Shown here in pieces: positions 1 to 18,263 of a stretch of DNA of 64,000 nt. The notes under the pieces were generated by a model. That model searched no databases. It had not been told where the DNA came from and worked only from the letters and a program-made list of their open reading frames with translations. This stretch comes from an uncultured Methanosarcinaceae archaeon (GTDB lineage: Archaea; Halobacteriota; Methanosarcinia; Methanosarcinales; Methanosarcinaceae). Every line of letters begins with the position of its first letter. The first letter of the stretch is position 1. The stretch covers positions 1-64,000 of the forward strand of contig CAWHXP010000018.1 in NCBI GenBank assembly GCA_963833425.1, given 5' to 3'. The position numbers were made by a program, and so were the translations under genes.

Positions 1-411
1 CTTCCCAAGAGACATGATCCGGAAGGTAAAAAAAGCCACAGAAATTGTAGGCCCTACATATATCCATACCCACGCTCCACTTACTACAGGCTGGGGATTC
101 GAAAATTCAAATTCTTGGAAATCGCCAAACTCGCGGTAGAAACCGGTCTATGGCCTATGTATGAGATGGAATTTGGAGAAATAACGCAGGTCAGAAAGAT
201 CAAGGATCCCAGGCCAGTCGAGGAGTACCTGAGAACTCAAAGAAGATTCAAACATCTATTCACCATGGAAGGTGGTAATGAAGAAATCCAGAAAATTCAG
301 GATAATGCAGACTGGAATATAAAACACTATGATCTTAAAGGAAAACTAAGTTTTCACTTTTTTATTCCAGTCGAATACCTTAGCTTTCATTGGTACGTGA
401 ATTTTCCCTAG
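1..411 (+). pseudogene. porB: 3' end of pyruvate:ferredoxin oxidoreductase beta subunit, frameshifted
   Basis: Frame 2 from base 2 reads FPRDMIRKVKKATEIVGPTYIHTHAPLTTGWGF, then shifts near 110 into frame 1 EIAKLAVETGLWPMYE...YLRTQRRFKHL. The C-terminus runs on into apparently non-homologous sequence. Confidence 0.75.
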
Positions 412-506
412 AAACTTTATTAACTGACTGATTTATATTTTATTCTGCTGCGCTTTTGAATTAAAATGTAATTACAGAATTCAAACCATTGTGTTTATAA
501 AAATAA

Positions 507-595
507 GGAGGATTTGTTAAACCTCTATTTTCACGAATAACTTATATATAACTTATAATCATGTGATAAAACTTCGGAGCTTCTCGAAATCCTCT
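507..595. mobile_element. ~90-bp MITE copy
   Basis: Degenerate terminal inverted repeats GGAGGATTTGTTAAACCTC...GCTTCTCGAAATCCTCT; same family as 58432-58528. Confidence 0.7.
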
Positions 596-761
596 AAGAT
601 ACTATATTTTTTTACGTGAATTATCATGAAAAATTTCTTTTAGGCAATGTTATATTCAACGATTTTGAAATATATTCGCTTTAAAATCGGCAAGAGGTAT
701 TGTTTTGAGTTTGATGTGATCTGTAATGATGATCATGTAAATTTTTTCGTTGGTTCTGAAC
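596..761 (+). pseudogene. IS200/IS605 tnpA remnant, left half (split by the integrated element)
   Basis: Translates to STILKYIRFKIGKRYCFEFDVICNDDHVNFFVGSE; nearly identical to the reverse complement of 29499-29660. Confidence 0.85.
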
Positions 762-785
762 CAACATAAATACCTATATTGTTTA
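749..785. repeat. Left junction: 13-bp core plus left terminal inverted repeat
   Basis: GTTGGTTCTGAAC (749-761), CAA, then CATAAATACCTATATTGTTTA (765-785). 749-765 is also a perfect GTTGGTTC-T-GAACCAAC palindrome. Confidence 0.9.
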
Positions 786-811
786 TCTATGATTAATTCC
801 ATCAAGTTAGT

Positions 812-1946
812 ATGGATAATTCAAAGATCTTAAAAGATTACTTAAGGAAGGTTAAGCAGATGGACTTACGGAAGAGACAATTGCACCTGCTGAATATACA
901 CTTATAAAGTTCATAGAATGGTGTGGAGATCGAGAATTAAAGGAATTACTACAGACGATGTTTACGATTATCTGGATTTTATAAATGCCTATACATACAT
1001 CAAAGCTGGTAAGGCAGTTAAGTACTCGCCTGGTACACAACAAAAAATCCGAACGGTTTTAAAAAAATTCTTGACTTTTATAAATCATGAACTCGGAGCC
1101 GTAATAAAATTGCGGACGCTAAAAAATGGGAAAATCCCCGAAGATATTTTGACTCGCGAAGAAATTGAAAAATTAATTGATTCATGTCTAAGTAACAGAG
1201 ATCGGGCTATAGTTGCTACTTTTTATGAAAGCGGAGCTAGAAGGGGCGAATTACTAACAGTTCAACTTAAACATGTGACTTTTGACGAGAATGGGGCAAT
1301 TCTTAATATACAGAAAGGGAAAACAGGAAGTCGCCGCGTGAGACTTGTATTAGCTTCGTCTTACCTTAAACAGTGGATTGACACGCATCCATTAAAGAAT
1401 AATCATGATGCTTACCTATTCTGTTCAACTAATTCTCCTTTTGGAGTCATCACATTTGTAGGACTTGCAGATCAACTACACAAAATAGCAAATAGAGCAG
1501 ATATCCAGCCAAAAAGAGTTTATCCACATGCATTTAGACATGCCCGAGCAACACATTTAGCCGAACAATTACCTGAACAACTTTTAAAAGAATATTTAGG
1601 CTGGACTAAATCAAGTAATATGGCGAGTGTATATGTGCATATGTCAGGTAGAGATGTGGATAATGCTATACTTAAATTGCACGGAATCGAGACTGAAGAA
1701 GCCCCCAAAAAATTTACTGTTAATAAATGCCCACGTTGTAAGGAAATAAATCCAGAAAATGCTTTATTTTGTTTTAAATGTGGACTGCCACTTACGCAGG
1801 AAGTTTCATCCACTGTAGAATCCGTAAAAACCGATTATATGCAATTTGCAGATCTTAACGAAATCCGGGAAATGAAAAATGTGTTAAAACAGGAACTTGA
1901 TGAAATTTCTAAGTTAAAGGAGTTGATGCTCAAAGCAGGAAAATAA
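812..1946 (+). CDS. Tyrosine recombinase/integrase with C-terminal Zn ribbon; two apparent N-terminal frameshifts (long ORF 918-1946)
   Basis: Catalytic motifs SGARRGE, KGKTG, HAFRH, LGW, VYVH; CPRC/CFKC Zn ribbon. ATG 812 gives MDNSKILKDYLRKV, then ADGLTEETI...WCGDRELK in another frame. Confidence 0.9.
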
Positions 1947-1989
1947 CTTTCTCGTAGAGCTTGATCCCAAAACTCAAAATTGCATCTTT

Positions 1990-2680
1990 TGATTTCAAAT
2001 TCCAAATGACTCACAAGCATAGACAGCTCATAACGAAGCTTAAAATGTGGAAGTCGAGCTATTTGATGAATTGCTGAAAGATTTATTTGTGGCAATCCCT
2101 GAACCAAGGCAAACAATAAGAAGGCCAAGCTTGTTAATTCCTGAATCTCTATTCTGTGCCATTCAGAAAGTGTACTCTCAGTTATCCAGCCGTCATCATT
2201 TAGTCTCTTTCAGAATGCAACTGAAAAAGGACAAATAGAACACGCAACCCATTTCAATGCGCCATCAAAACTCTTCAACATCTAAATATTACTCCAATTT
2301 TACAGAAATTGGTCTACGTATCTGCATTACCAGTAGCCGGATTAGCTACTAATTTCGTCGTCGATTCTACGGGATTCAGATCAACAACATTCCTCATATG
2401 CAACGAAATGGAACATGGACAGAGCAAAGAACATAAGTGCCTTAAGGCTTATATGTGTGGGTGTAAAGATCAACACAGTCGCTTCTGTGATCATAATTGA
2501 TGGGATTACAATGACTCCCCACAGTTTAGCCAATTGATTAATCAGGCATCAGAAGGCTTCTCAATGAATGAGATTTCTGCTGACTTAGCTTATTCGTCTC
2601 GCAAAAATTTTGACGCAGCAAATGTATTGGTGTGAGTCATATATCCCTTTTAAAAAAAATGTGACTGGAAGGGCAACTTG
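1990..2680 (+). pseudogene. Degraded DDE transposase (IS5-like) remnant
   Basis: Fragments ESLFCAIQKVYSQLSSR and FVVDSTGF, with multiple stops and frameshifts; boundaries approximate. Confidence 0.6.
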
Positions 2681-2693
2681 TTCTGCTATTTAG

Positions 2694-3374
2694 TCATAAT
2701 CTATAATAGTCCTTAACTGACCGGTAATTAGGGTATAACGAATGCCTCTCCATCCTTAAGAAGATATCCCAAAGAAAGTCTAAAAAATAAGAGGGGACTT
2801 GAGTCTGGCTTAGAGATTGGGTAGGGAATTCATAAGCATGATTTTCGAAATTTTCATAAGAATCTGCACGTTTACCGAGACTGTAAATATCTTCGACATC
2901 ATCGTATAAGGTTTTAAAGCTATTTTTCAAGCACTTATCAAAAAAGTGAATCGAATGGGACAACTGAATACGAAGCTCTTTGGCATGAATAGCATCTATA
3001 CAAGGATATCCTTTAATGATTTGCTCTTCAAGGATTAGATTTAAAGCCTGATCATATCTATTTAATTGTATCTCAGGATAGTGTTTTCGTATATTCCGCA
3101 AAGTTTCTAATTTTTCAATTTTCCATTTATGATATGACCCCGGATCTCGTGGAATTATTTCGATGCAACCTTTTTGTTTTAAACCTTTCAAGTGAGACCT
3201 AATGTTGTTCTCATCTAATAGATTATATTTTTTCTGAATATGTTTTATTATATCTGGCCCTGATACCACATCATTTTTAATGAGAATGTACTTGACAATT
3301 TCGATTTTTGCTTCGTTTTTATTTAAACGCTCGCCTCGGATTCTCCTCTTTTGTTCATTTTCATCTTCATTCAT
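2694..3374 (-). CDS. Winged-HTH protein, putative repressor of the element
   Basis: NIRSHLKGLKQKGCIE wHTH-like segment; divergent from the AbrB/replication operon. Confidence 0.6.
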   Translation of the reverse strand: MNEDENEQKRRIRGERLNKNEAKIEIVKYILIKNDVVSGPDIIKHIQKKYNLLDENNIRSHLKGLKQKGCIEIIPRDPGSYHKWKIEKLETLRNIRKHYPEIQLNRYDQALNLILEEQIIKGYPCIDAIHAKELRIQLSHSIHFFDKCLKNSFKTLYDDVEDIYSLGKRADSYENFENHAYEFPTQSLSQTQVPSYFLDFLWDIFLRMERHSLYPNYRSVKDYYRL

Positions 3375-3537
3375 ATGAAATTACATAAACTGCTGGATCT
3401 TAAGCTTTGTTATTTTACATTTTATAGGGGTACTGGATATAGTTTAGTTCTAATATCCAGGTGATATTCAACCTGAGGAATATCATTTTCAGATATTTAT
3501 ACATGTAATTTCCTAAGTAAGAAATAGTGGTAGTAAA

Positions 3538-3786
3538 ATGTTTAGATTTAAAAATAAAAAAATTCAACAGGTAAGAGGTTCGTTTTTTGTCTCTCTACCT
3601 AGTGAGTGGATCACAAGCAACGAAATGAAAAAAAGTGATCAAGTACGAATCGAACTATTAGAAGACGGAAATTTACAGATTTGCCCGGTCCCTCAGTCCG
3701 ACCAAGGCTCTAAGGGGACCGGAACAACGACAACAACCACCGTTTTAAGGAGATGTGCCGGCTATGGAAAATATGACCCAAAGTAA
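3538..3786 (+). CDS. AbrB/SpoVT-like DNA-binding protein
   Basis: KIQQVRGSFFVSLPSEW...KSDQVRIELLEDGNLQI swapped-hairpin signature. Confidence 0.8.
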   Translation: MFRFKNKKIQQVRGSFFVSLPSEWITSNEMKKSDQVRIELLEDGNLQICPVPQSDQGSKGTGTTTTTTVLRRCAGYGKYDPK

Positions 3787-3925
3787 TTTATTATTTGTGG
3801 AATGGTCAAAGCGTGTAAACTCTCAATATCCTGACATCTTGGAACATATGAGGAAGAGCACTGACCCCCTGGAAAGAGTCATCGCAAAACGAATTATACA
3901 AATTGCAGGTGGCAACAAAGAATGA
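3764..3925 (+). CDS. Small hypothetical protein (53 aa), not in the ORF track
   Basis: MENMTQSNLLFVEWSKRVNSQYPDILEHMRKSTDPLERVIAKRIIQIAGGNKE; AAGGAG upstream; its stop overlaps a downstream ATG (ATGA). Confidence 0.65.
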   Translation: MENMTQSNLLFVEWSKRVNSQYPDILEHMRKSTDPLERVIAKRIIQIAGGNKE

Positions 3926-3959
3926 CTAAAAACCATAATCCGAAAGATTTCAGGAGACC

Positions 3960-4532
3960 ATGAGAGTGGATTTCGATTTTGATAGTGTCAAATTGTCACC
4001 CACTTTTGCGGCTGGAATGATGGTCGAAAAATTGATCACTACCATTCCAATAAGAAAGCCGAATGCATACGAATTTTTTAGGGTTAGAGACGACTCGGAG
4101 TGGACTTTCTCACTGTATCTTCTCGATTTGAATGAAGGGGATGAGGAAAAATATATCGTAGCTCCAGAGCTGATCTCAGACGTAATGGATATTGGAAGGT
4201 TAAAGCCTGTAATGATCTACACTTTGATAACACATACCCACAAAATATTTTTCCTTTCAGATGTCCCACTCCCCGATCAAGACGGTAAAGATAATGGATA
4301 CCACCGAACTCGAAGAGAATCATACGCAATTGGCACGAAAAAATGGGTTCGGATCAAGGCTAACAAGGCTCTAGGTGCTTATGAAATATCCCTAGCAAAA
4401 GGTGAGTTGCCTGAACCTAAATGGCCAAAGGACCCAAAAACAATAAAAGATGCTTTAAATATTGCTTTTAAAAATAAGATTATTGATTCGATAAATCATC
4501 CAGTCTTGAAGCAACTTAGAGGGGAGCAGTGA
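3960..4532 (+). CDS. Hypothetical protein translationally coupled to PolA
   Basis: 190-aa ORF whose stop overlaps the PolA GTG start (GTGA); motif TIPIRKPNAYEFFRVR. The true start may be the out-of-frame ATG at 3922. Confidence 0.8.
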   Translation: MRVDFDFDSVKLSPTFAAGMMVEKLITTIPIRKPNAYEFFRVRDDSEWTFSLYLLDLNEGDEEKYIVAPELISDVMDIGRLKPVMIYTLITHTHKIFFLSDVPLPDQDGKDNGYHRTRRESYAIGTKKWVRIKANKALGAYEISLAKGELPEPKWPKDPKTIKDALNIAFKNKIIDSINHPVLKQLRGEQ

Positions 4533-6283
4533 AAATGCTCCCTATTTTTAAAAATATTTTTGTAATAGACTTCGAATTTATCGCTGATTCGGGAGAGACG
4601 TCGAAACCTGTGTGTATTGTAGCGCACGAAATTATTTCTGGGGAAACTAAAAAAGTATGGTTAGAAGGAAAAAACCCCCTTACCCTTAAACCACCATACC
4701 CTATGGATGAAACTGATTTATTTGTTGCATATTTTAGTTCTGCAGAATGGGGTTGTCATTTAGCTCTAAACTGGCCTTTGCCCATTCACGTAGTTGATTT
4801 GTATCCGGAGTTTAGAAAAATTACAAATGGGCTGCCTGGTGTCTCAAAAAGTCTATTGGGAGCTTGTCAACAATATGGAATCGCAGCCATAGCGGAATCA
4901 GAAAAGGAAAGTACTAGACAAAGGATAATGCAAGGGCCTCCTTATACTGAAAAAGAAAAAAGCTACATTATGGATTATTGCGCGTCTGACGTCATGGAAA
5001 CAGCGAAATTATTCAAAAAAATATCAATGGAGAGCAGTTTTGACATTGGCACAGCACTTTTTCGCGGTAAGTATATGGAAGCAGTAGCAATAATGGAATA
5101 TAATGGAATTCCGATCGACATTGAAACTTTAATAGCTTTAAAGGAAAATTGGACTTTAATTAAGGAGAAATTAATTCAGGAAATAGATCTCTTCTATGGA
5201 GTTTACGAAGGCACTATATTCAAGATTTCTAAGTTTGAGCAGTATTTGAATAAAAATGGGATCTCTTGGCCAAGGACTGAGAAAGGAAATTTAGAAATAA
5301 AAGATGATACTTTCAAGGAAATGGTTGTTTCATATCCGCAACTACAGGGGCTTAAAGATCTTCGGTATATTTTAGGACAATTGAAACTTTCAGAAATTTC
5401 TGTTGGATCTGACAATAGAAATAGATGCTTACTTTCGCCGTTTGCTTCTAAAACTGGAAGAAATCAGCCAAGCACAAGTAAATTCATATTTGGTCCTGCT
5501 GTCTGGCTCAGGAGTCTTATTAAACCTGAAAAAGGCAAAGTGTTAGCTCACATTGATTATTCTCAGCAAGAATTTTGTATAGCAGCTGCTTTGTCGAAAG
5601 ATCCTGAAATGAAAGCAGCCTACGAGTCAGGAGATCCTTATCTAGCGTTTGCAAAACAGGCCAGAGCAGTGCCACAGGAAGCAACAAAATCGACTCATAA
5701 AGCTGCAAGAGATCTTTTTAAAGCTTGTGTATTGGGGGTTCAATATGGTATGGGTCCCGATAGTCTGGCTTTGCGTATAGGCAAATCAACTCCTTACGCC
5801 AAAGAACTACTAAGGCACCACAAGAGAGTTTACCAAAAGTATTGGGCTTGGTGTGATCATGTCCTGGATACCACTCTTCTTTTCAGAAGGATAACTACCT
5901 GTTTTGGGTGGCAAATGCACATCTTTGGCGGAGAGAAGAAAGAAGGAAGAACAATCAAAAATTTCCCTTGTCAAGCTACGGGTGCGGAAATTCTCAGAGT
6001 CGCTTGCATTCTTCTTGTCGACAATAATATCAAACTCATTGCTCCAATCCACGACGCAATTCTAATTGAGTGTGATGAGGAAGAAGCCGATGAGACTATT
6101 TTCCAAGCCCAGAAATTAATGACCAAAGCTTCTTCCATAGTCTTGGGGCCTGGCAATTCCATTAAAACGGAAGCTAATGTCATTAAATACCCCGATAGAT
6201 ATTCTGACCCTAGGGGAGTTGAGACTTGGAATAAGATCCTAAGAATTATACAAGAAATCAAAGCCAAAAATTCTGGTGCTTGA
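4529..6283 (+). CDS. Family A DNA polymerase with 3'-5' exonuclease domain and no 5'-3' nuclease domain
   Basis: ExoI VIDFEF, ExoIII YCASDV, TGRNQPS, motif A DYSQQE, motif B RDLFKACVLGVQYGMG, NFPCQATGAE, motif C IHDA. Confidence 0.93.
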   Translation: MKMLPIFKNIFVIDFEFIADSGETSKPVCIVAHEIISGETKKVWLEGKNPLTLKPPYPMDETDLFVAYFSSAEWGCHLALNWPLPIHVVDLYPEFRKITNGLPGVSKSLLGACQQYGIAAIAESEKESTRQRIMQGPPYTEKEKSYIMDYCASDVMETAKLFKKISMESSFDIGTALFRGKYMEAVAIMEYNGIPIDIETLIALKENWTLIKEKLIQEIDLFYGVYEGTIFKISKFEQYLNKNGISWPRTEKGNLEIKDDTFKEMVVSYPQLQGLKDLRYILGQLKLSEISVGSDNRNRCLLSPFASKTGRNQPSTSKFIFGPAVWLRSLIKPEKGKVLAHIDYSQQEFCIAAALSKDPEMKAAYESGDPYLAFAKQARAVPQEATKSTHKAARDLFKACVLGVQYGMGPDSLALRIGKSTPYAKELLRHHKRVYQKYWAWCDHVLDTTLLFRRITTCFGWQMHIFGGEKKEGRTIKNFPCQATGAEILRVACILLVDNNIKLIAPIHDAILIECDEEEADETIFQAQKLMTKASSIVLGPGNSIKTEANVIKYPDRYSDPRGVETWNKILRIIQEIKAKNSGA

Positions 6284-6285
6284 TA

Positions 6286-6358
6286 AACACAACATAGGAA
6301 TTTATGGCTATTTACATCGGAATCTGTGACTATTTACATCGGAATCTGTGACTATTTA
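6286..6358 (+). repeat. 22-bp tandem iteron-like repeats (putative origin)
   Basis: CTATTTACATCGGAATCTGTGA at 6308-6329 and 6330-6351, a partial copy at 6352-6358 and a degenerate upstream copy; followed by an AT-rich tract at ~6385-6435. Confidence 0.8.
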
Positions 6359-6435
6359 AATAGACATGGATTCTACTCCGTCCTATTAATTATTTTTAGA
6401 TCTTTCTATTATTTAATATTATATAGGTAAATAAT

Positions 6436-6756
6436 ATGATAACTAAGAAAAAACTAAAATGTCATTTTATCCCCAATACTCCACTCTCTTGGATTCAGAA
6501 AGCTTTACTGTTACAAGGTAATGTAAATGCTACAAAATTAGCTTTGTATATCTGGTATGTAAAAGGTTTAAAGCAAACCAAAACGGATCTTGTTATTTCC
6601 AGTTCTACAGCTAATGATATTTTTGGTGTCAATAAAAGATCTTTCACAAGAGCTCTACAAAAATTGGTAGATTTGGGAATGATAACAACATCAATCCGTG
6701 AACGTGGTAAAAGTCCTAGAGTTACAGTAATATGGGAAGATTCTGAGATAGCATGA
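6436..6756 (+). CDS. Winged-HTH protein, possible replication initiator
   Basis: FGVNKRSFTRALQKLVDLGMITT...GKSPRVTV wHTH pattern, directly downstream of the iterons. Confidence 0.65.
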   Translation: MITKKKLKCHFIPNTPLSWIQKALLLQGNVNATKLALYIWYVKGLKQTKTDLVISSSTANDIFGVNKRSFTRALQKLVDLGMITTSIRERGKSPRVTVIWEDSEIA

Positions 6757-7182
6757 GTAATGAAGTTGGAGCAAATCTGTAACATAACTTTTCTTAATAA
6801 ATCTGCTGATCCTATAGGAGCTTCGTCTTGGAGGTTTAGACGATTAATAAGTATGTATGTTTTATAAATTTAATTTTATTTTTTAAATTGGATAAAAACA
6901 TATATAAAATATCTTGAAGCTGGTTACCGTGCAACCAAGGCTAAAGTATGGGGATTCGTTTTGGCCAAACAACGCCTTAATCTGGGACCACCAGGGAGAC
7001 TTTTATAGACTGTTTGACAAATATAGTTACCCTAGTTTAAAAAATGCCTTAAATCGCCCCAAAACCTGTCTTTTATGGCTTCATACTCAAAAGCTCGGCT
7101 ATTTCATACAGAAGAGAACTAATAAAATATTTAACATAAGATCCATATATATTACTTCAAATAAGCAAAAAACGGTGACTAA

Positions 7183-7605
7183 ATGGCTAGACCAACTAAA
7201 ATGACCCCCGATATAATCAATAGAATCGGTGACGGTATATCACTTGGACTTACTTATGCTCTTGCTGCCAATGCAGCCGGAATTACATATCAAACATTAA
7301 ATTTCTGGATGAACAAAGGAAAGAATTCAAAGTCTGGAGAATACTTTGAGTTCTATAAATATATAACTAAATGTAACGCTGATGCCGCGAAAGCTCTCCT
7401 AGAACGCTTAAACAAAGCAGCAGTTGCTGGTAATTGCCAAGTTTGCATGTGGATTTTGGAAAGGCGTTTCAGTGACGACTTCGGCAGGAGAGAATATCGT
7501 AAAATGGACATTGTTTCAGAGAATATAAATGAAAATGTTGAACTAACAATCAAGGAAGGAGATCAAATTAGAAAACAAATTTTAGCGAAGTTTGATCGGG
7601 GTTAA
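7183..7605 (+). CDS. Terminase small subunit-like HTH protein
   Basis: MARPTKMTPD...AANAAGITYQTLNFW...WILERRF..DFGRR resembles phage TerS-type proteins. Confidence 0.65.
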   Translation: MARPTKMTPDIINRIGDGISLGLTYALAANAAGITYQTLNFWMNKGKNSKSGEYFEFYKYITKCNADAAKALLERLNKAAVAGNCQVCMWILERRFSDDFGRREYRKMDIVSENINENVELTIKEGDQIRKQILAKFDRG

Positions 7606-8562
7606 GAAAGTCACGAGTTATCAGTTGATTAAGATTTTTCATCCTAAATTGGTATATTTTTACTAGAATATACTTTCCTTCTGATTTTATTCTGTGGTAT
7701 AATTGCGGTCGGACTACCAAGATCGTCACCATGGATTTTTCCCCAGATTATTCAGGCAGTAACTTTGTGTCCAACCTGCTATTCTCGTGAATTGAACTTT
7801 GAATGTTAACTGCCTGCTTATGCACATATTCTCATTTAACTTTTCTATCTGCTCGTCCTGGTGTGCCGCTGCTCGTCCTTAATGCTCATCTGACCGTAAA
7901 GTGCTTGGATCTAAGCCCAGATGCTCGAGGGTTTCTGTCTTTATCTGCAGAAGGGCACTATCGAATAGTGGAGTACAACACCCCCATCGATAACTGAAAA
8001 TGAAGCAAAAAAGATTAGAATGAAAATTTTAGAAAAGATTAGAATTAGAGATAGGTACATTGAATCATTTATCTAACTGAAATGCTCTTGATAGTTTAGT
8101 TAATTAAGTCGATATTACTCATTTTGCGCAATTTTTTATAAATTGATAAGAACTATATTTAATCAATAAGATGCAATAATTTAATATTTATAAAAATTTT
8201 TATAGTTCTAAAATATTTTAATCCAGAATAAATTTTATTCAAAAACTATTTTTCAGCTCATTAATTTGATATAACGGATTATTTCATATTGTAATTAGCC
8301 GAAAGTGACATCAATGGTATATTGTGCATGCTCACAATGGGGGTGGTAGAAGCTAAGATGCTAAGCATTTTAATCCACGCGGGGGGCAAAGCCGTCACCT
8401 CTTATAAGGTATTGCAGAAGATGATTGATCTGGACTGTCCTTAACTATGTTTCTCTATTATTTTTACAATATCGTTTTTATAAAAGAACTCTAAGTTAAT
8501 ACACGAGTTCGTCATTATTGAAAATAAGTCGCATGCAAAGAACAAAAATAGAGGAGTGAATC

Positions 8563-8988
8563 ATGAAAAAGCTATCCGATAATTTGCAAGAGCTCGCAGG
8601 CCATGTGGCGGATGCAGAAAAGAAAGTCGCGGCCGCCGAACAAGCATCCAAGGAAAAGGTAGAAGCCTCGATCCAGAAATCAAAAGCAGATGCTAAAGCA
8701 AGGCAGGAATCGTTCAAAGCTGACGTCAAAAAGCGCCAGGAAGCGACGGCTATGCATTGGCAAGAACTCCAGGAAGGTTATCATCAGAAGATTCAGCAAA
8801 TCAAGAACAAAATTAAAACCGAAAAAGAGGCTATGGAAGCCAAGCAAGCAACAAGACGGGCGGATGATTCGGAGGCGTATGCCGAGGCTGCCATCAATTT
8901 TGCCATGATGGCAATTGACGAAGCCGAAGTGGCAGTGCTGGAAGCGATTGACGCACGGGTATACGCTGAATCGTTACCTCAAAAGTGA
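8563..8988 (+). CDS. Coiled-coil hypothetical protein
   Basis: 141-aa Ala/Glu/Lys-rich helical ORF with GAGGAG upstream. Confidence 0.8.
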   Translation: MKKLSDNLQELAGHVADAEKKVAAAEQASKEKVEASIQKSKADAKARQESFKADVKKRQEATAMHWQELQEGYHQKIQQIKNKIKTEKEAMEAKQATRRADDSEAYAEAAINFAMMAIDEAEVAVLEAIDARVYAESLPQK

Positions 8989-9225
8989 GGACAGCGTTCA
9001 GATCATTGCGAAAGTTGGAGAGAAGTAGATATCGACCGAATGTCTCGTCAACGATATAATGTCGTATTAAATCGGATACATCTATTCGGAATCTTTCAAT
9101 CTTTGAGGATTGACGCGACACTAGTGCATCGATTCAAAAATTGATCAATATTTGAAGTAAGAATTAATTGATCGATAGTGAATTTATAGCTAGGGTTTAT
9201 GGACATTTTTTGAAATCGAAGCACT

Positions 9226-9333
9226 AGCTAACGCTCAGCATGAGCCATGCGGAACTGAAACCGTGAAACAACCAACAACCTGAAGCAAAAACAGAAAGGC
9301 GTAACCCGCATTGGCTCGATGCGTTTGTTAGGC
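9226..9333 (-). other. Integron attC-like recombination site (solitary)
   Basis: Minus strand GCCTAAC-AAAC-GCATCGAGCCAATGCGG...CCGCATGGCTCATGC-TGAGC-GTTAGCT: R''/L''/L'/R' layout with two unpaired bases on the R'' arm. Confidence 0.75.
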
Positions 9334-9401
9334 CACGATCAAAGGACAAAAATGAAAACTGCAAAACTGATAAAAGACAACCTACTAAGGATAAGAAACA
9401 T

Positions 9402-11232
9402 ATGTTCTACAGTAATGGTAACTACGAAGCGTTCATTCGTCCCCGCAAGCCGCAGGGCGTGGACGGGAAGTCTACCTATCTCATCGGTGGTGGCATCGCC
9501 TCGCTCGCAGCGGCGGGCTTTTTGATCCGCGACGGGCAGATGGACGGAAAACGCATCACCATCTACGAGGCGAGCAATATCGCTGGCGGCTGCCTAGACG
9601 GCATCAAGCACCCAAAGGAGGGCTACCTCTTCCGTGGCGAGCGCGAGATGGAAGACCACTACGAGTGCTTGTGGGATCTGATGCGCTCGATCCCGTCGCT
9701 CGATGTCAAGGACGCCTCGGTCCTTGAAGACTTTTACCGGATCAACAAGGATCACCACAACTACTCTCTGTGTCGGACCACTCACAAGCGCGGGCAGCCT
9801 TTCCCGACCGACGGCAAGATGCTCCTGACCCCCAAGGCGCAGGGCGAGCTGATGAAGCTCTTCTACACCCACCGAAGAGAGCTATTCGACAGGCGGTTCG
9901 AAGAATTCGTGAGCGAGGAGTTCTTCGCCAGCAACTTCTGGGTGTATTGGCTGTCGATGTTCGCCATCGGGCCCTGGCACGGTGCCCTAGAGATGAAGCT
10001 CTACATGAACCGCTTCGTCCAGCACTTCGGTGGGATGGCGGATCTCAGCACCATCAAGTTCACACGCCTCAACCAGTTCGACTCTCTGGTCCTCCCGCTA
10101 GTCAAGTGGCTCGAGCAGCAGGGCGTCATTATTGTGTACGACACGAAGGTCACCAACGTCGTGTTCGATATCACCCCGGAACGCAAGGTCGCTCGCCGGA
10201 TCGAGTGGATCCAGGCCGGAAAGCGCGGAGGACGCGACGTCACCAAGAACGACATCGTCCTCATTACCAACAGCTCTGCGGTCGAAAACACCTCTTGGGG
10301 GGACCACCACACCCCGGCCAAGTGGATTAGGGACATCCAGGAGGGCAGCATCTGGGCGATGTGGCGCAACATCGCCGCCCAGGACCCTGGCCTTCGGTCG
10401 GCCCGACAAGTTCTGTACCCACACTGACAAGAGCAGCTATGAGTCGGCATGTATCATCACCCTCGACGACAAGATTCCGCTCTACATCGAGCGGATCTGC
10501 CAGCGCGACCCGTACAGTTTCGACTGGAGCCCCATCACCGGTGGCTTGGTGACTGTGCGCGATTCCAATTGGCTGCTGTCGTGGAACGTCGAGCGCAAAC
10601 CGCACTTCAGGGACGCGCCGAAGGACCAGCTGATGATTCACGCCTACGGCACGTACAGCCTCGACCGGCCCGGCAACTACGTCAAGAAGGCGATGCGTGA
10701 GTGCACTGGCGAGGAGATCGCCCTGGAATGGCTCTATCACCTGGGGGTGCCTGACGATCAGATCGACCAGCTGGCGGCCAAGTCGGTGATCGTGCATCCG
10801 TGCATGATGCCCTACATCACGGCCTTCTTCTTGCCACGGCGTGACGGCGACCGTCCCAAGGTAGTGCCCGAGGGAGCGGTCAACTTCGGGTTCCTGGGGC
10901 AGCTCGCCGAGAGCCATCCGAGGGATGTCATCTTCACCGTCGAATACTCAGTGCGGACGGCGATGGAGGCGGTCTACACCCTGTTGGACATCGAGCGGGG
11001 CGTGCCGGAGCCGTGGGGCTCGCAGTACGACATTCGTGCGCTGCTCAACTCGGCGATCGTGCTGCGGGATGGCGAGAAGCTAAAGCTGCCCCCTGCGATC
11101 GAGGCGTACCTGGCGAACACCGAAATCGGCGAGCTGCTGAGGGACTACGGGTTCATCGGCGAACTCGGCGACAACGAGCTCACGGTCGCGATACACAAGA
11201 ATCTTCCGCAGGTGACTCAAACGGTCCTCTAG
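9402..11232 (+). pseudogene. Oleate hydratase (MCRA family), single +1 frameshift at ~10389
   Basis: MFYSNGNYEAF, IGGGIASLAAAGFLIRDG, RGEREME, then FGRPDKFC...CMMPYIT...FTVEYSVRTA in another frame; visibly GC-rich. Confidence 0.9.
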
Positions 11233-11249
11233 AGACTAGCGGAGAGACG

Positions 11250-11663
11250 GAATGGACCAGGACTGTTATATGATAATCATTCCATAGACTCTCCCAAAAC
11301 TCCAGAAAAAGCTACACATTGAATGAGGATATCGTGAAGCTGGCCATTTAATTTATTGCTGACTCCAAAAAAGTCGCACCCACCAAACCATTGTTTATGT
11401 ACTTCTGTCCAGGTGCTATGAATGCTCCTCACCACTTTCCTAAGGAGTGGGCAGATAAATACAAAAGTAAGTTCGATGATGGTTGGGACGTTTACCGGGA
11501 GAAAACCTTAGCCCAGCAGAAGAGACTTGGTATAATTCCAAAACAAACCGAACTATCTCGCCATGACCCGGATGTCAAGCCATGGGACCAATGCTCACCT
11601 GAGGAAAAGAAACTCTATGCTCGTATGATGGAAGTCTTTGGTGGGTTCCTGGAACATCTATAA
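11250..11663 (+). pseudogene. Arylsulfatase internal fragment
   Basis: FMYFCPGAMNAPHHFPKEWADKYKSKFDDGWD...YARMMEVFGGFLEH; both termini missing. Confidence 0.75.
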
Positions 11664-11737
11664 CTCATGAAGAAATAGGAAATAGTTAATCTAAACCACA
11701 ATAATAAAAAGAAATATCCAAAAAAGTTGTTGCTCTC

Positions 11738-13352
11738 CTACGATTGATGCATCGTTTTGAACATGTTCCAGATGACGCTAATATCGGTACTTACTCGTTG
11801 GAACGGGTTTGGTTCTTTGGGGATATTCAGCAGTTTGAAGACCGCCATTTGGGCTGTGCGCACCGAATATTCCATCGTGAAGACACAATCGTCTGGCACT
11901 TCAACTAACTGACCGGTGAGGGCAAGGTTGGTTGAGCCTTTCGGAACAACATCAGGTCGGTCAGTAACCTTTCTCTTCAGAAACTGGCTTGTGACGAAAG
12001 GCATCCTGCAGGGTAAGACGTTTGACGAATCCAGAATCTGCTTCACAGGTCGGCGTCGAACCCCAAGTGACGCACCAGCTCCTCCAGAATCTCTCTTCCG
12101 CTGCATTGACCCATTGGTTTGCGGACATAGTCGCCGATTTTGTCGGCGTAGAGACCTAAGCCGTAAAACACGTAAACGCCTGCTGTCTGGTTCTGGTAAT
12201 ACGGCTGATGGTTGAGGATAAAAGCCAGCGACCAGCTGGACTCTGGAAGCGAGGTGATCCCGTTCTTACCGGCTTCTTGCCCGCTGAATTTCTCCATTAA
12301 ATCAAAGAACCGCCGGTCCTTCTGGGTCACCGTGAATGACGTGAATGAAGACTCGTCGATGTGACCGGTGAAGACCGAAGGATCACGAAAGATGTCCTTG
12401 CGCTTTCGGGCGAGAGTCTCCCAAAGTGCCCATTTCCCCTCATGCGTCGGCGACGTGATCAGCTCAGGTGCGGAATCATTCGAACCAAAGGAGGCATTTG
12501 CTACCATCGAGCCCAGCGTAACTATGACAATGTCCTCCGGCCTGACTGCAATCTTCTTTTGCTTTCCGTCCTGGACCATCGTGATCCCGCAGACGGTGAT
12601 TTCGCCATCATTGTCGTTCCCGATGTCTATATCGGTCACTCGGGTCTTCCCCACGTATTGCACACCACGGTCGGTCAACCACTTAATGATCGGGCGCACC
12701 ATCAAATCGTACTGGTTATACCTGGTGTGGTGGAGCAAGTTTTGAGTTGCCATATCCGGGAACAGATGCATGAATCTCAGCAGGTAGCGTCGCATTTCAA
12801 TGGCGCTGTGCCATGGTTCAAAGGCAAAGAGCGTTTTCCACATGTGCCAGAAATTCGTTTCAAAAAAGTGCTCTGAGAAGACGTCGCTGATACGCTTATC
12901 GTTCGACGCACTTTCCAGTTTGGCAGTTAACGCGAGGAGCTCCAACTCGTCTTTCGGATTAAAACCATAAGAGTGGAAGTTCAGAATCTTACAGAGTGAA
13001 AGTTCAGAATCTTACCGTTGGCGACCAGGCGAGCCTTGTTGTTCCAGCGGACGGCATTAGTGAACTCGAGGGTGTCCTGCTTGATCGTTTTCGTCGGGTC
13101 ATCCAGTGAGGGGATGAAAGAAAGCAGATCGTACATGCAGACGTAATTCTCCTCGAACATGCGCTCGCCGCGCATGAAGTAACCTTTTTCAGGAGTGCCA
13201 GCTGAGTCAAGACATCCGCCCGGTAAACTCTCCTCCTCGTAAATGTTGATGTTCGCACCTGAAAAGCCGCCGTCTTTGATCAGGTAGGCAGCAGCAGCCA
13301 GATTTGCGATTCCTGACCCGATCAAGTGTGCCTTGCGTCCTTCATTGTTCAT
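11738..13352 (-). pseudogene. Second oleate hydratase, broken by a 23-bp duplication and a 2-bp insertion
   Basis: IGSGIANLAAAAYLIKDG, RGERMFE, FAFEPWHSAIEMRRY, NQYD, FTMEYSVRTA spread over three ORFs; duplication at 12970-12992/12993-13015; second shift near 12043. Confidence 0.9.
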
Positions 13353-13645
13353 GAACAGTCTCTCATCATATTTTTATTAAGTTAGATATAATTTTAATCC
13401 GATTAGGAAAGTACGCAGTTAAATTGAAAAACATACTGTTGACAAAAAATTATGATAGCCAGGCATGCCGATATCCTGTGAGCTTCAGCTGCTAATGTTG
13501 TCAACGATACTATAAAAAAACTGCAAGCAGTAAAGCAATATCATGTATTCTTATTTCTAATGATTTAGGCTACCATCCTTGGTATTCATAGCCCCGACTC
13601 TTTCACAGCTACGTCTTTATCATCATCAGTCGTTATTGGCTAACT

Positions 13646-14134
13646 TTATTCTTCTGCAAAAGTTGCACGCAGCTTATCTTCTTCTTCCTTTGATAGGTTA
13701 GAAGCAATGAGTTCGAACTTTGTTTGTTTCATAGCTTCTACTACCTTATCTTCAACGGCGTCGCTAGTCATTAGAAACAAAGCTGAAGTGCCTTCAGTTA
13801 CTTTGCTACGAATAGATTTTATGAAATCTTCATCGATTCCAATATGGGTCATGGAACCGGAAATTGCACCTATTGCAGCCCCAGCGACCAAGCCTAATAA
13901 CGGAATGAAAAATATCAAGCCAAATAACATGCCCCAAAAAGCACCACTCAATGCACCTACACCGGTTAAATCAGTCAAATGCTTTGTATTTGGTTTCTTT
14001 TTTCCCACAGGCCAGGTGACTATAGCAGCATCTTGTAGTTCAATCAGTTGTTTCTTACTTAAATTTTCAATTATTTCAAGTTCATTTTCGGCACCTTTAG
14101 CGGTGTCAAACTTAAGAACTGTTAAAGTTGTCAT
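13646..14134 (-). CDS. DUF1269-like membrane protein
   Basis: GALSGAFWGMLFGLIF...GIDEDFIKSIRSKVTEGTSALF glycine-zipper pattern. Confidence 0.8.
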   Translation of the reverse strand: MTTLTVLKFDTAKGAENELEIIENLSKKQLIELQDAAIVTWPVGKKKPNTKHLTDLTGVGALSGAFWGMLFGLIFFIPLLGLVAGAAIGAISGSMTHIGIDEDFIKSIRSKVTEGTSALFLMTSDAVEDKVVEAMKQTKFELIASNLSKEEEDKLRATFAEE

Positions 14135-14399
14135 TACACAATCTCCTCTTCTGCTTCACATTTATTTCTAGGTTGATTTACCGTACCATCCTATGGTATA
14201 GATTTTCTTACTAGATATTATTTAAAAATAATTATACAAAAAATAGTTTCTAAACAATTTTTTCCCTCTACTTGAATATTTTGACATTAAACAATATTTT
14301 TATATTAATTATGTATTAATATATTTTATATACACTGCTCACTTTTTCATTACTCATTTTCCACAAAATATTTTGGAATATACCATAAGGGTTTTGAGT

Positions 14400-14677
14400 C
14401 TTGACATCAAAAAATGACTGATTGCGGGGCAATTTAAGGTATTTTCTCGAATCCAAAAGGTATCAAAGGAAAAATCACTGTGAAAGACTCGTTCATAGTC
14501 GATGTTTACGGATCAGCTAACCAGCCTGTTTGTGCCTTTATGAGCGGCTACTTTGCAGGTTACCTGATAGATTATTTTGGGAAGAATATCAGTGTAAGAG
14601 AGATTAGCTGCAAAGTTACAGGAAAAAACGTATGCAGGCATGCAATTTCATTGGCATTCTCTGACGTATACCAGTGA
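14400..14677 (+). pseudogene. V4R domain fragment
   Basis: PVCAFMSGYFAG...VREISCKVTGKNVCRH; N-terminus degraded. Confidence 0.65.
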
Positions 14678-14959
14678 CTAAAAAGAGATATACCTTGATC
14701 AGATATCAGAATGCCATTTTCGGAGATAATGAACTGCTTGTGACAATGGGAAGAAGGGGGATATCTTAGGTTCATTTTATATTCACATATATCATCCCAA
14801 GCACTTAGAATAATTCCTTACCGTGTCCAGACAGTGGGAGAACTTTTCTAGACAATTGATAATTATAGACATAGCACCCAGAATAATATAGAGAATTGAC
14901 TCGTGAAAATCAGATGTTAATAAAAATCCTTAATAATATTGCATTGTGTCTAGAGGTGA

Positions 14960-15436
14960 TCATAGTTTTCCTGGCATATATGACCTCAATTTCATTAAAG
15001 TTTCTGTTCCATACCTACGTAATTCTTTGATCTCTTTTTGGTATACAAAAGCTGCTGGTACTAACATAAATGGAATGGTTGACGCAGCTTTAGCTCCTTC
15101 TGAAATAGGCAATGTGGCTAAAACATTCGCTCCAGTCGCACCATAAATAGGAACTATAGGAACTAGCATAGCTAAACCAAATGTTCTTCTGAAATGGATG
15201 CCTAATTTTGCAGCCAAGAAACCATTGGACCCTATGAGCAAACCAATACCCACACTAGGCCCTATAGTCTCAAAAAGATTATACGATGGTCCAACATAGA
15301 TCCCAAAATCAATGCCAAACAAGGAAACAAGACCATGGACTTGATCCCTATCATGATTGGAATTCCCTCCAAAACTTGATAAAACTATGCCTATATCCAG
15401 TTGCAGAGGTCCTTTTTCTACTTTTCTTTCACCCAT
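14960..15436 (-). CDS. Hypothetical membrane protein
   Basis: 158-aa hydrophobic, Gly-rich ORF. Confidence 0.5.
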   Translation of the reverse strand: MGERKVEKGPLQLDIGIVLSSFGGNSNHDRDQVHGLVSLFGIDFGIYVGPSYNLFETIGPSVGIGLLIGSNGFLAAKLGIHFRRTFGLAMLVPIVPIYGATGANVLATLPISEGAKAASTIPFMLVPAAFVYQKEIKELRRYGTETLMKLRSYMPGKL

Positions 15437-15585
15437 TATATCATTGATATCTCAAATCCATAATATAGTTTATTGCTATTATGATACTGCTCTATTTAAA
15501 TCTAAAGAGGATTTCGATTTACTTCTAATTTTTTTTCACGAGAATCCTGGTTAAATCTTTTCTGCGAATTTCTGTTTTTTATTAT

Positions 15586-15675
15586 AGAGATTTTCGATAA
15601 ACTTCGATTTCAACAAATTGCGTATATACACTTTATAAACAACCAGCCCAAAATTGGGGTTTATCAAAATCCTCT
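15586..15675. mobile_element. ~90-bp MITE copy inside the integrated element
   Basis: AGAGATTTTCGATAAAC...GTTTATCAAAATCCTCT. Confidence 0.75.
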
Positions 15676-16001
15676 TTGGATGGAACTGTGGAAATTCATC
15701 ACCTATCATAGGTGCTGTGCGTACTTTGATTTTATGATGAAATAATTGGATATCTGTATAGTTTTGGTTAAAAACTTTGAATTATCTAACCATGAGATAG
15801 GTAGGTTTTGTATGAAAACTTCTACATAAGTAAAAACGATAAATCCTATTTTTTGGAATGAAATAAAACAGGAATGGAGAAAAGTCATTTTTACAGAACA
15901 TTTAGTACAAGGTTTTATAATTTTTCTGTAAAATAACAATACCAGCAAGTATTAGGTAAAAAGTTGGAAATTAAACGATTAATCAGATATGGAGTTTACA
16001 G

Positions 16002-16871
16002 ATGACTGAAACTAAAAAATCAGATTTTTGGATAGATCATAAACTACGTGTGATGTTAGCAGAGTATAATTCATTAAGATCAGATATTAAGTCTAAAAGT
16101 GAGTTTCAAAGTCGCCTTTTACAGATCCATATTACTGTCTTAACTACTATTATTGGAGCAATTTTATATAAAAATGCCCAATTATGGCTACTGTTTCTCA
16201 TTCCAATTGAGTCATTACTATTTGGTTCTTGGTATCGAAATTATGCTTCAAGCATTCTAGGAATTGAAACATACATCAGAAAGGAAATTGAATCCAAAGT
16301 CAAGGAAATGCTAGGAGATAGATACCTAATGGGGTGGGAACACGCTAAGATGGTAGACGTTATTCCATATGCAACCTACAGAGAAAATAGTTTCTGGTCA
16401 TTAGTTCAGTTGACTTTTTTGGGACCGTCTATATTAATTTCAAAATTTGCTTTGATTTTGTTAATACAGCGGTTGCTAGTTTATACTGCCTGGGGAGTTA
16501 TCGATGTCTCCATCTTTTTTGTATTTATCCCTTTTTTATTCTGCTTAGGTTGGTTTGTATTATTCCCATCTAGTAAAAGCGGTGAAAAGAAAGAATTTGA
16601 ATCCAAAATAAAGTTTGGTCATTTCTGGCTCTCAATTTTTTTGCTTTTTTGTGGGGTATCTTCTATAGTTATTATAAAAACTTTGATTTCCATAAGAGAG
16701 CAGTTGCTAATTCACAAAGAATGGATGGTTATCCAGCTTTATCTGCTCTTTGTATTTAGTTTTGTTTTAGTGGGTTTAGGTTGGTTCGGATTCTACTCGA
16801 TTAATAATGCTTATGGAAAGATACGCTTTGAATGTAACGAAGAATTAGAGCGCGAATTCCTAAAAAAATAA
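16002..16871 (+). CDS. Multi-pass membrane hypothetical protein
   Basis: 289-aa ORF with several hydrophobic segments; N-terminal AEYNSLRSDI helix; GGAG upstream. Confidence 0.75.
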   Translation: MTETKKSDFWIDHKLRVMLAEYNSLRSDIKSKSEFQSRLLQIHITVLTTIIGAILYKNAQLWLLFLIPIESLLFGSWYRNYASSILGIETYIRKEIESKVKEMLGDRYLMGWEHAKMVDVIPYATYRENSFWSLVQLTFLGPSILISKFALILLIQRLLVYTAWGVIDVSIFFVFIPFLFCLGWFVLFPSSKSGEKKEFESKIKFGHFWLSIFLLFCGVSSIVIIKTLISIREQLLIHKEWMVIQLYLLFVFSFVLVGLGWFGFYSINNAYGKIRFECNEELEREFLKK

Positions 16872-17840
16872 AACTTGATACAATAGGTGCGAAAAAATCT
16901 GCATTTTATACGGCTTCTTGGGGATAAAATAGCTTTTTTGTTAACCAGCTTTATGGCAGATTCTTATTTAGCTAATATGTATTAATAGAAACGTTCAAAA
17001 AGAATAAACCTGGCTTTTATAATGTCATCCATTTCTTTCATGCATTATCTCTATAATTGACTGATTAGTCAGTTACACTGCAATTTTACGTTGTTAGATA
17101 AATTTTTATAGTGCTTTTTTCTTGACTCGTCCCGATGAATTTCAAAAACCAACTTTTAATGCATAAAATACCTTTAGAATTTTATCTAAGTTTGTCTATT
17201 AAACAAGTCTCATAAATAGGATCAAATTCTTCTGACTCAAGAATACTACTCTTGGCATCCAAAAATCTCATCTTTGGTATTTTGAAAATACTTTATAGTA
17301 TAAAAATTATAAAAATATAATTTTATAATTCATCTAAGGCATAATTTTTAATAAGTTAATGATAATTCTATTAACTCTACGATTTAAGTCTCACTGTGAG
17401 CTTCTAATGAGCTCACACATTTATCTAGAACTTTCCTATTCCTCTGTCTAAATACTTTACAACATGCTATTAAGTGACTTTTGGATAGGCTATGGGCTCA
17501 GACATATTCACTTTTGAAGCAAGCTGAATCTCTTTCAAATGCATGGACTAGTTGAAGGATGGTGAAACTTTAATCTAGCATGGCTGATATTAGGGAAAAG
17601 TGAAGATTTCGTTAGTTTTCGCTCACCCGGAGATTAAAATGAAATCTATCCTATAGTTTTACTATAGAAACTGCAACCAAACTTAACCAGTTACATATGG
17701 TCAAGAAGAGATTCATAACTAGTAGATATATTGAATGGGTATATTCTATTTGATGCCCTGCGAAGTACAGAATAAATATAGGATTATTATCTTGATAAAG
17801 AAATATTATTTAATTTTCAAGTAATAATTAAAGAAAGCTG

Positions 17841-17877
17841 TAGACAATACAGGTATTTATGGTAGTTGGTTCTGAAC
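17841..17877. repeat. Right junction: right terminal inverted repeat plus 13-bp core
   Basis: TAGACAATACAGGTATTTATG (17841-17861; 19/21 match to the reverse complement of 765-785), GTA, then GTTGGTTCTGAAC (17865-17877). Confidence 0.9.
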
Positions 17878-18170
17878 TAAACTATTTTTTTACAATAGTG
17901 ATGCAGATTATAAAAAGTACCACAGCAAGAAAATGCTTAAAGAATATTCTGAAATAAAAAACAGCTATGAGGTGATAAACTTTAGAACAAATGAGATTGC
18001 ATTGGAACTGTGGGTGATGGCCCAACTTCCGATGAAATAAAAGCTATTTCAAAATCGGGGAAAGTGGAACGAAAACGAAGCATATTAAGCAAATGAGACT
18101 ATTTCATTTTGAATAATTCCTGAATAGCCAGAGCAAAGGAGCTAGAAAACCTATTGCTTGCAGAGGAATG
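17865..18170 (+). pseudogene. IS200/IS605 tnpA remnant, right half
   Basis: VGSELNYFFTIVMQIIKSTTARK continues the left half exactly; matches the reverse complement of ~29250-29511. Confidence 0.85.
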
Positions 18171-18263
18171 AGGTACCGAAATTTGGAATGAGGATTGTAA
18201 TATTTAGTTTGTGTAATTTACAGTAAAAAGTTGAAAAGGATTTATTATTTCTATAAAAATTAA

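Follow-up and report, generated by a model that had tools for sequence, protein, structure and literature searches.

An integrated element with a small terminase gene in Methanosarcinaceae, a possible satellite of head-tailed archaeal viruses

In bacteria, gene transfer, defence and virulence are all shaped by satellites of tailed phages. Here we analyse a candidate for a comparable element in an uncultured Methanosarcinaceae archaeon. It lies in the first 64 kb of contig C18 (the window, meaning the whole stretch of DNA analysed) of an assembly of 4.07 Mb in 21 contigs, 80% complete and with about 36% G+C. The element, which we call the island, carries its own integrase, its own polymerase (a family A DNA polymerase, PolA) and a genuine homologue of the small terminase subunit (TerS) of head-tailed viruses, but no capsid genes. 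Because of this combination we read it, at a probability of roughly 0.5, as a satellite of a head-tailed archaeal virus similar to the phage-inducible chromosomal islands (PICIs) of bacteria, and as one member of a modular Methanosarcinaceae family in which the integrase, the regulator and the replicon are swapped while TerS is kept.

The core of PICIs comprises an integrase, a regulator, a primase-replicase, a gene for capsid morphogenesis and a small terminase; accessory genes lie downstream of terS, and further structural genes are lacking (de Sousa et al. 2023, PMC10085698; what we say of this and of the other papers cited holds for the available parts of their texts). That paper treats bacteria only, and in its available text the word "archaea" occurs 0 times. 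The island resembles PICIs and the Staphylococcus aureus pathogenicity islands (SaPIs) in having integrase, putative regulation, replication, small terminase and accessory genes in the same order, in the lack of further structural or lysis genes, and in its site-specific integration with short direct repeats. Its core of about 7 kb compares with a PICI median of 9.5 kb, counted from int to the last core gene (PMC10085698). Unlike PICIs, the island has an archaeal host and a replicon made of a family A polymerase and iterons instead of a Pri-Rep primase-helicase; its candidate regulators are not AlpA, Stl or MerR homologues, and no capsid-morphogenesis gene was found in it. It also differs in its target, a dispersed host repeat, with copies of such elements reaching dozens per genome, and in being known from sequence alone. 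Sister elements do have primases, of the PrimPol, D5-like or DUF927-Cch kind.

Within archaea, pSSVi and pSSVx were the only satellites previously known, to which the SRCE elements of spindle-shaped viruses have been added (Zhou et al., bioRxiv 10.1101/2025.02.15.638363); Makarova et al. 2014 (PMC4158269) proposed an integrated satellite related to fuselloviruses. The island is like pSSVx, pSSVi and SRCE in being an archaeal plasmid-like replicon with an incomplete virion or packaging module and a dependence on a helper, which for the island is proposed. It differs in that those elements exploit spindle-shaped viruses and encode an ATPase, a capsid protein or both, and none of them is described in the available text with a terminase subunit or a link to head-tailed viruses. 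The cryptic integrated elements of archaea are also similar: they bear integrases, have a median length of 17 kb, encode varied replication proteins and are bounded by short att repeats (Krupovic et al. 2019, PMC6563490). From the same study, the thaumarchaeal NitKor-E1 is like the island in having terminase genes without other head-tail genes, but it has both TerS and the large subunit TerL, whereas the island has TerS alone. Cryptic elements are reported there without a signature gene, whereas TerS is the conserved signature gene of the present family. As for the polymerase, the CHEAP subfamily is a PolA cluster of Proteobacteria and Methanomicrobia related to the polymerases of staphylococcal mobile elements, such as CCPol of SCCmec (Czernecki et al. 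2023, PMC10201439). The island PolA, found on a mobile element of a methanogen, fits the CHEAP/CCPol picture by description only; the element context is absent from the available text of that paper, where "integrase" and "satellite" each occur 0 times. A literature search, with many subscription papers outside its reach, returned no TerS-only integrative element and no PICI-like satellite described in archaea. Within the literature searched, a terminase-bearing satellite of a head-tailed virus, which the island most likely is, has so far gone undescribed in archaea.

The TerS homologue and the search for other virus genes

The gene at 7183-7605 (+ strand) encodes a 140-aa protein that matches the small terminase family phrog_4102 (4.9e-25). 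The same family is matched by 42/42 members of a diverse TerS alignment, 27 of which also match two further TerS PHROGs. A Pfam scan of the protein gives nothing significant, and transposase families give no match; some sources label its relatives "transposase". The initial annotation had called the gene TerS-like and left it to the fold to distinguish it from a plain helix-turn-helix (HTH) regulator, and the fold comes out small-terminase-like. A PDB profile search finds Sf6 gp1 with E 0.013 over residues 2-112. The AlphaFold (AF2) model, with pLDDT 80, has helices at 9-48, the HTH region, and at 53-100. Compared with VIA, it matches Sf6 TerS (3hef_A) with Z 9.2 and a root-mean-square deviation of 5.5 over 104 residues, the next match having Z 5.5. 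The top five Foldseek matches are all Sf6 TerS, though with E of just 0.09. For four copies of the protein, the oligomer prediction scores 0.42 versus 0.01 for the best of 3 controls, a value that may reflect memory of solved TerS rings; the score mark used is reached by 20/30 proteins solved as one-chain pairs and by 1/23 solved as single chains. At least 74% of the contacts are common to the oligomer runs, partner pLDDT is at least 70, and the interface lies on helices 59-105.

Homologues of the gene lie beside terL in viruses, the context on which the TerS call had been made to depend. The phage collection has a single match, ORF8 of Methanobacterium virus PhiF3, which lies directly 5' of a putative terL and portal gene. 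When IMG/VR is scanned with TerS alone nothing is found; with an alignment (A1) as the query we find 15 loci with a TerS relative, at 29-43% identity. TerL lies immediately 3' of TerS in 8/10 of the loci whose neighbours were scanned, in one case with an 88-aa open reading frame (ORF) between them. In the remaining two, TerL is 6 kb off in one and absent from the other. The five further loci, with neighbours not scanned, have the same overlapping 413-aa ORF. Among cellular contigs, a TerS relative overlaps the terL gene on one Methanosarcina contig (L050), and relatives also adjoin terL in four loci of other Methanosarcinaceae genera (L146, L147, L148 and L149); the island copy itself has no terL. 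Because the profiles, the Sf6 fold match, the oligomer prediction and the viral context upstream of terL all agree, we conclude that the 140-aa protein is a genuine homologue of viral small terminases. Its intact copies in this genome are under purifying selection, with a median ratio of nonsynonymous to synonymous substitution rates (dN/dS) of 0.18 over the 21 pairs of 7 intact copies, for which dS is mostly saturated, and of 0.24-0.25 for two pairs with dS of about 0.23.

None of the other virus genes accompanies TerS. The initial annotation had reported no capsid, portal, large terminase or tail genes, and in PHROG scans of 918-16871 the head, portal, large-terminase and tail families indeed have no match in any scanned ORF. 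In the genome as a whole, PF03237, PF04860, phrog_38, phrog_2, phrog_12 and phrog_10 give nothing credible for TerL, portal or capsid (the single phrog_38 match has 15.6 bits), and neither do the terminase, portal and protease proteins of PhiF3; at 80% completeness this does not show that a helper or TerL is absent. TerL, portal or major capsid protein genes occur within 10 kb in 0/78 related TerS loci from public genomes. Head-tailed (pro)viruses do exist in the genus, where TerL is found with phrog_38 in 11/59 genomes and with phrog_2 in 10/59.

These counts bear on whether the island is a decayed head-tailed provirus whose structural genes are gone. As a hallmark gene of viruses TerS would agree with decay, and so would the many pseudogenes among the genome copies. 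The two att repeats of the island, however, are both exact, the integrase, polymerase and TerS genes are intact, and the same compact layout is seen in diverged elements; moreover, no fragment of a TerL, portal or capsid gene remains in the 78 related loci or in the genome. On the structural-gene counts (0/78 loci within 10 kb, none in the scanned ORFs of the island or in the 80%-complete genome) we reject a degraded provirus, which we regard as very improbable.

Integration sites and modules of the island

A direct-repeat search inside the window alone does not reveal the att sites of the island; comparison with relatives does. Five sister genomes were compared. Two of them have an empty site, in which window 1-768 is joined directly to 17866 onward, and two more have the same two points adjacent, beside an inverted block. 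The homology of four relatives to the left flank stops at 764-768. The exact 13-bp direct repeat GTTGGTTCTGAAC is present at 749-761 (+ strand), where it is the attL core at the end of a dispersed host repeat of about 330 bp, and at 17865-17877 (+ strand), where it is the attR core and the rest of the host repeat follows; no third exact copy occurs in the 64 kb. Because relatives have empty sites and the 13-bp repeats are exact at both junctions, window 762-17864 is one integrated mobile element of 17.1 kb, in place of the extent of 812-7605 given initially. The two inner ends, left (762-776) and right (17850-17864), are imperfect inverted repeats of one another, and the end motifs recur in a sister-genome copy. 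As weak additional support for the empty site, a peat metagenome contig from one run joins 764 to 17893, with 27 letters on the shorter side.

The integration target is the end of the roughly 330-bp sequence, which is dispersed over the genome. The same type of integrase is found at the same position of other copies of this repeat, two on contig C8 and five in one sister genome. From these placements, the dispersed repeat serves as attB for the island-type integrase, and with attB copies dispersed in this way the element could therefore multiply. In the window the repeat is intergenic and is represented by 518-768 together with 17865-17950; the genome has dozens of copies, 65-88% identical, and in the part searched (1-18500) the repeat has no Rfam match. 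A complete inverted copy is located at 29425-29746, and the block between the two inverted copies (about 18.2-29.7 kb) is flipped in two sister genomes.

Inside these boundaries, the ORFs and their family matches bear out the gene order first proposed: integrase, leftward winged-HTH (wHTH) regulator, divergent AbrB, replication genes, origin, TerS-like gene and then cargo. The tyrosine integrase (918-1946, + strand) has 342 aa and a C-terminal zinc ribbon (PF00589 1e-21, phrog_1 3.5e-34, Zn_Ribbon_1 2.8e-4). Two 63-aa ORFs at 2047-2500 (+ strand) follow it, without a family match but conserved in other copies of the element. The leftward gene at 2694-3374 (- strand) encodes a 226-aa protein with an N-terminal winged helix, matching LexA_DNA_bind at 9e-4, below the cut-off, and phrog_1077 at 1.7e-3. 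By its position it is a candidate master repressor, and in sister elements a divergent gene of 231-399 aa occupies the same place. The divergent intergenic region (3375-3537) has a 21-nt inverted repeat (3366-3386 and 3503-3523, 81% complementary) that could be an operator. On its other side, 3538-3786 (+ strand) encodes an 82-aa AbrB/MazE-type DNA-binding protein of the SpoVT-AbrB fold (PF04014 2.3e-6). By position, the wHTH and AbrB-like genes are a candidate counterpart of the PICI regulation module, the wHTH match being sub-cut-off and neither gene an AlpA, Stl or MerR homologue. Next to them, orf56 (3755-3925, + strand) has no family and is conserved in copies of the element.

The replication genes are there as initially annotated, in the form of a PolA cassette and not of a primase-replicase. 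The polymerase (4529-6283, + strand) has 584 aa with an N-terminal 3'-5' exonuclease region (PF00476 8e-28, phrog_17 3e-50). Its best PDB match is 8jrb at 3.9e-16, and we read the conserved polymerase motifs by eye. A scan of IMG/VR with PolA gives no match, and matches in phage and plasmid collections are distant, at 23-30% identity. Always upstream of the PolA gene is orf190 (3960-4532, + strand), which has no family and for which Atlas offers no usable lead (scores 0.89); on contig C5 a 44% identical orf190 partner stands beside a 55% identical copy of PolA. Downstream, three tandem 22-nt repeats (iterons) at 6292-6357 make, by their position, a candidate replication origin. The candidate for the origin proposed earlier is this iteron block, while 6843-7182 is instead the conserved non-coding leader of terS. 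The small winged-helix protein orf106 (6436-6756, + strand, 106 aa) has weak matches to replication-initiator and DnaD-like PHROGs (1.6e-3 to 2.8e-2), co-occurs with PolA in other copies, and is a candidate iteron-binding initiator. In the island, the part of the PICI replication module and origin would be played by a family A polymerase, an enzyme of another kind, together with iterons.

The leader at 6843-7182 (+ strand) is about 340 nt long and is conserved in 9 copies that have different replicons, with a mean column identity of 72%. We find no consistent ORF in it, and upstream ORFs vary between copies. One of them, orf96 (6914-7204), was tried as a gene; it matched itself alone and was taken as non-coding. 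The leader has no conserved RNA fold (consensus -0.19 kcal/mol), and an Rfam search over 1-18500 gives no match at E up to 0.1. Our guess is that the leader is a helper-responsive late promoter and/or a pac region.

The TerS-bearing family and its possible ways of life

TerS has 44 matches in this genome, which merge into about 31 loci; the frame is open over its full length in only 7 of them, and the five sister genomes have 12-54 matches each. Across the genus a match is found in 20/59 genomes, six of them with 12-54 matches and 14 with 1-3 matches at 36-40% identity; across the order, the family is present in 14/151 sampled genomes and 5/23 genera. Genus-level relatives and the related loci point to Methanosarcina of peat, bog and fen as the host. 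In this genome, loci with intact surroundings keep a constant layout with differing modules. A second integrase type, about 29% identical and 403-405 aa long, is followed by a divergent gene of 263-273 aa, a PrimPol, a partner of 387 aa or 595 aa, and TerS; one PrimPol element of this type, on C5, adjoins kaiC fragments. In another element TerS is preceded by a CAAX protease and a Cu/Zn superoxide dismutase, and yet another has a DUF927-Cch-type primase-helicase. In other Methanosarcina genomes, with few TerS copies, we find an integrase, a divergent gene, a primase-helicase and TerS (L048), the same with prim-pol and PolA as the replicon (L051), a primase followed by TerS (L151), and an integrase at some distance from TerS (L150). 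An element from another genus has an integrase, a 231-aa gene, a primase and TerS (L145). Across these loci, three Methanosarcinaceae genera share a layout of integrase, regulator, variable replicon and TerS in which the integrases and the replicases are unrelated.

The unit that recurs over the whole genome is 6862-7740, comprising leader, terS and about 135 bp, with sharp left starts at 6862-6874. A sister copy on contig C21 has 94% DNA identity overall, yet its TerS protein is just 68% identical, which leads us to conclude that TerS is exchanged as a module; many of the copies are remnants or solitary. The same observations can be taken to mean that terS and its 340-nt leader form an autonomous cassette, which is shuffled by recombination or by IS6/IS240, or is retained by the host as a decoy against viruses, one by which the viral terminase is misdirected. 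The int-PolA element would then merely bear one copy of terS. Intact solitary TerS copies among host genes, and IS240 transposases near several copies, are in favour of such a cassette. On the other hand, no terminal repeats or target duplications were found around the 6862-7740 unit, 36/78 related loci are partial, as expected of remnants of decayed elements, and in low-copy genomes TerS lies within complete elements or beside terL. An autonomous cassette seems to us distinctly unlikely.

A satellite would use the same parts differently, and by analogy with PICIs (PMC10085698, available text) we propose the following life cycle. The element would stay integrated, repressed by the leftward wHTH protein, until a head-tailed Methanosarcina virus infects or is induced and the repression is lifted. 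The integrase would then excise the element, and its own polymerase would replicate it from the iterons. A TerS ring would bind a pac site on the element DNA, for which the conserved leader and terS itself are the likeliest places, and would recruit the TerL of the helper, so that element DNA would be packaged in helper capsids and displace viral DNA. For the wider family we consider, tentatively and at a little less than even odds, that it is a satellite family of Methanosarcinaceae with TerS as its sole viral gene, with exchanged integrases and replicons (PolA, PrimPol, D5-like and DUF927-Cch), with cargo such as metal resistance, and with dozens of copies in one peat clade by way of the repeat attB.

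The initial annotation had already proposed a satellite of a methanogen head-tail virus. The layout fits the published definition of PICIs (PMC10085698, available text), while the satellite step is one that we infer, as no helper, excision, encapsidation or capsid-remodelling gene was seen. Several results weigh against it. A helper provirus, which the initial annotation had suggested looking for elsewhere in the genome, was not found in the 80% that the assembly covers, and of the six TerS-rich genomes just one has TerL, next to a gene outside this TerS family. The ORFs of the island match no family for capsid size or morphogenesis or for helper interference; orf56, orf190, the ORFs at 2047-2500 and several cargo ORFs are left without any family. 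No circle junction is present among the 15 joints listed of 20 from short metagenome contigs, and these contigs, apart from the weak empty-site joint, give no sign of excision, circles or particles. The copy number, with about 31 TerS loci in this genome, is unlike that of bacterial PICIs, of which a genome has at most five and usually one or two (PMC10085698, available text). For the 49 related loci with at least 9 kb upstream, a limited query set identifies an integrase in 13, a replicase in 17, both in 9 and neither in 28. In 27 of these 28, most of the large ORFs found upstream are host genes of ordinary kinds, and a replicase or helicase is seen in just four (DUF5906 twice, PolA once, UvrD once). 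Among all 78 related loci, 42 copies look intact and 36 are partial, and some of the solitary copies are intact. The closest viral TerS found is just 43% identical. Finally, the N-terminal domain of TerS by itself resembles HTH regulators (Z 4-5.5 to SANT, Myb and Tc3 domains), and an N-terminal HTH with an oligomerisation helix could equally serve a regulator or an excision factor.

Part of this evidence favours the strongest competing explanation, a virus-independent integrative plasmid, or cryptic integrated element, which excises, replicates by means of its PolA replicon, spreads by a route such as vesicles, cell fusion or natural uptake, and has recruited the TerS-like protein as a DNA-binding factor of its own, be it for recombination directionality, for partition or compaction, or for regulation. 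The missing helper and the lack of any further recognised hijacking gene agree with it, and so do the very high copy number, the many solitary copies and the HTH-like N-terminal domain. Cryptic elements with an integrase and a replicase are, in addition, the commonest integrated elements in archaea (PMC6563490, PMC4158269, available texts). Against a plasmid, the similarity to viral TerS spans the whole protein, oligomerisation helices included, and an oligomer is predicted. The position of TerS, behind the replicon and before the cargo, is constant across unrelated integrases and replicons and is the position of terS in PICIs, and close members of the family are terminase subunits of real viruses. 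We consider the plasmid doubtful, and prefer a satellite.

If the satellite reading is right, Archaea would gain their first known satellites of Caudoviricetes, terminase hijacking would have arisen in both prokaryotic domains, and terminase piracy across the domains would be either convergent or ancient. The elements would offer a way in to the nearly unknown head-tailed viruses that infect Methanosarcina, one of the major producers of methane in peat, and would be a route by which metal-resistance and bacterial-derived genes move between methanogens. Whatever the mechanism, the exact att site within the dispersed repeat and the TerS family, which accounts for 30-50 loci per genome, are directly usable in annotating Methanosarcina genomes.

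Cargo, right end and flanking sequence

The cargo of the island (7740-17200, about 9.5 kb) is variable. It has a coiled-coil ORF at 8563-8988, and two frameshifted, convergent oleate hydratase genes at 9402-11232 (+ strand) and 11738-13352 (- strand). These are followed by a DUF1269 protein gene at 13646-14134 (- strand) and ORFs at 14960-15436 (- strand) and 16002-16871 (+ strand). The first oleate hydratase gene is clearly foreign and recently acquired from a high-G+C organism, because its G+C content is 59-63% in a genome of 36%. The oleate hydratase pair is present, 96% identical, at a different site in a sister genome. Window 8230-17865 is found elsewhere, at 95-97% identity and with the same right boundary, in a sister genome other than that of the compact element described below. 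Four segments of the cargo (13632-14188, 14466-14892, 14932-15506 and 11262-11656) are multi-copy, 75-90% identical, in all five sister genomes; they correspond to the DUF1269 gene, a non-coding stretch, a 158-aa ORF and the region of a 90-aa ORF.

Related elements have other cargo. The C21 copy carries ArsR, an ACR3-type transporter, a low-molecular-weight phosphatase, a disulphide reductase and a CDF transporter. A compact element of a sister genome (L053), with an integrase 90% identical and a PolA-to-TerS part 83% identical in DNA, is without the island cargo. Within about 100 bp of the end of its terS it has a segment like window 17268-17491, and about 1 kb past terS there are host nitrogenase genes; the right end of this element could not be fixed. 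In the element L145 from another genus, a TIR-domain protein (14802-15368 of that locus, PF13676, 1.8e-8) is encoded behind terS, which hints that some elements of the TerS family carry defence genes, as bacterial satellites do.

The right end of the island (17200-17864, about 660 bp) is non-coding and conserved in the element family, with copies on C3 (91%), C8 (80%), C21 (86%) and C5 (83%). Those on C3 and C8 stop at 17867, and the C21 and C5 matches run into the host repeat. Within this end, a non-coding segment of about 220 nt with a short palindrome (window 17290-17500 versus 11290-11510 of L053) is 78% conserved, and may act as the arm-site region for the integrase or as a signal for packaging.

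Some TerS loci of other kinds were also observed. L146-L149, from other Methanosarcinaceae genera, have a RecA/UvsX-like recombinase, a large primase, a ParB-methyltransferase fusion, TerS and TerL, while none of their scanned neighbour ORFs matches a portal or capsid family, and L152 (neighbours not scanned) has the same layout. L146-L149 look like terminase-only islands such as NitKor-E1 of Thaumarchaeota. L123 is on a 1.19-Mb contig of a metagenome-assembled genome labelled alphaproteobacterial, and its statistics equal those of the Methanosarcinaceae locus L124; the probable cause is an error of binning or labelling, not a transfer.

The host genes flanking the island are archaeal and methanogen-like: aIF2-gamma, glycerol-1-phosphate dehydrogenase, RpoE', EF-1-alpha and an FpoF/FrhB-like protein. 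A CRISPR scan of the genome turned up only tandem repeats of coding type. The start of contig C18, host flank included, is repeated at 98.5-99% identity on C1 (1-6698, matching window 1-6721) and on C6 (1-2992, matching window 1-2991). We take C1 and C6 to be different assemblies of one locus and do not count them as further copies of the element. On C1 the second half of the PolA gene is just 85% identical and has a stop codon, and the divergence of C1 and C6 suggests that the sampled population is a mixture of strains or that the element has recombined internally in it.

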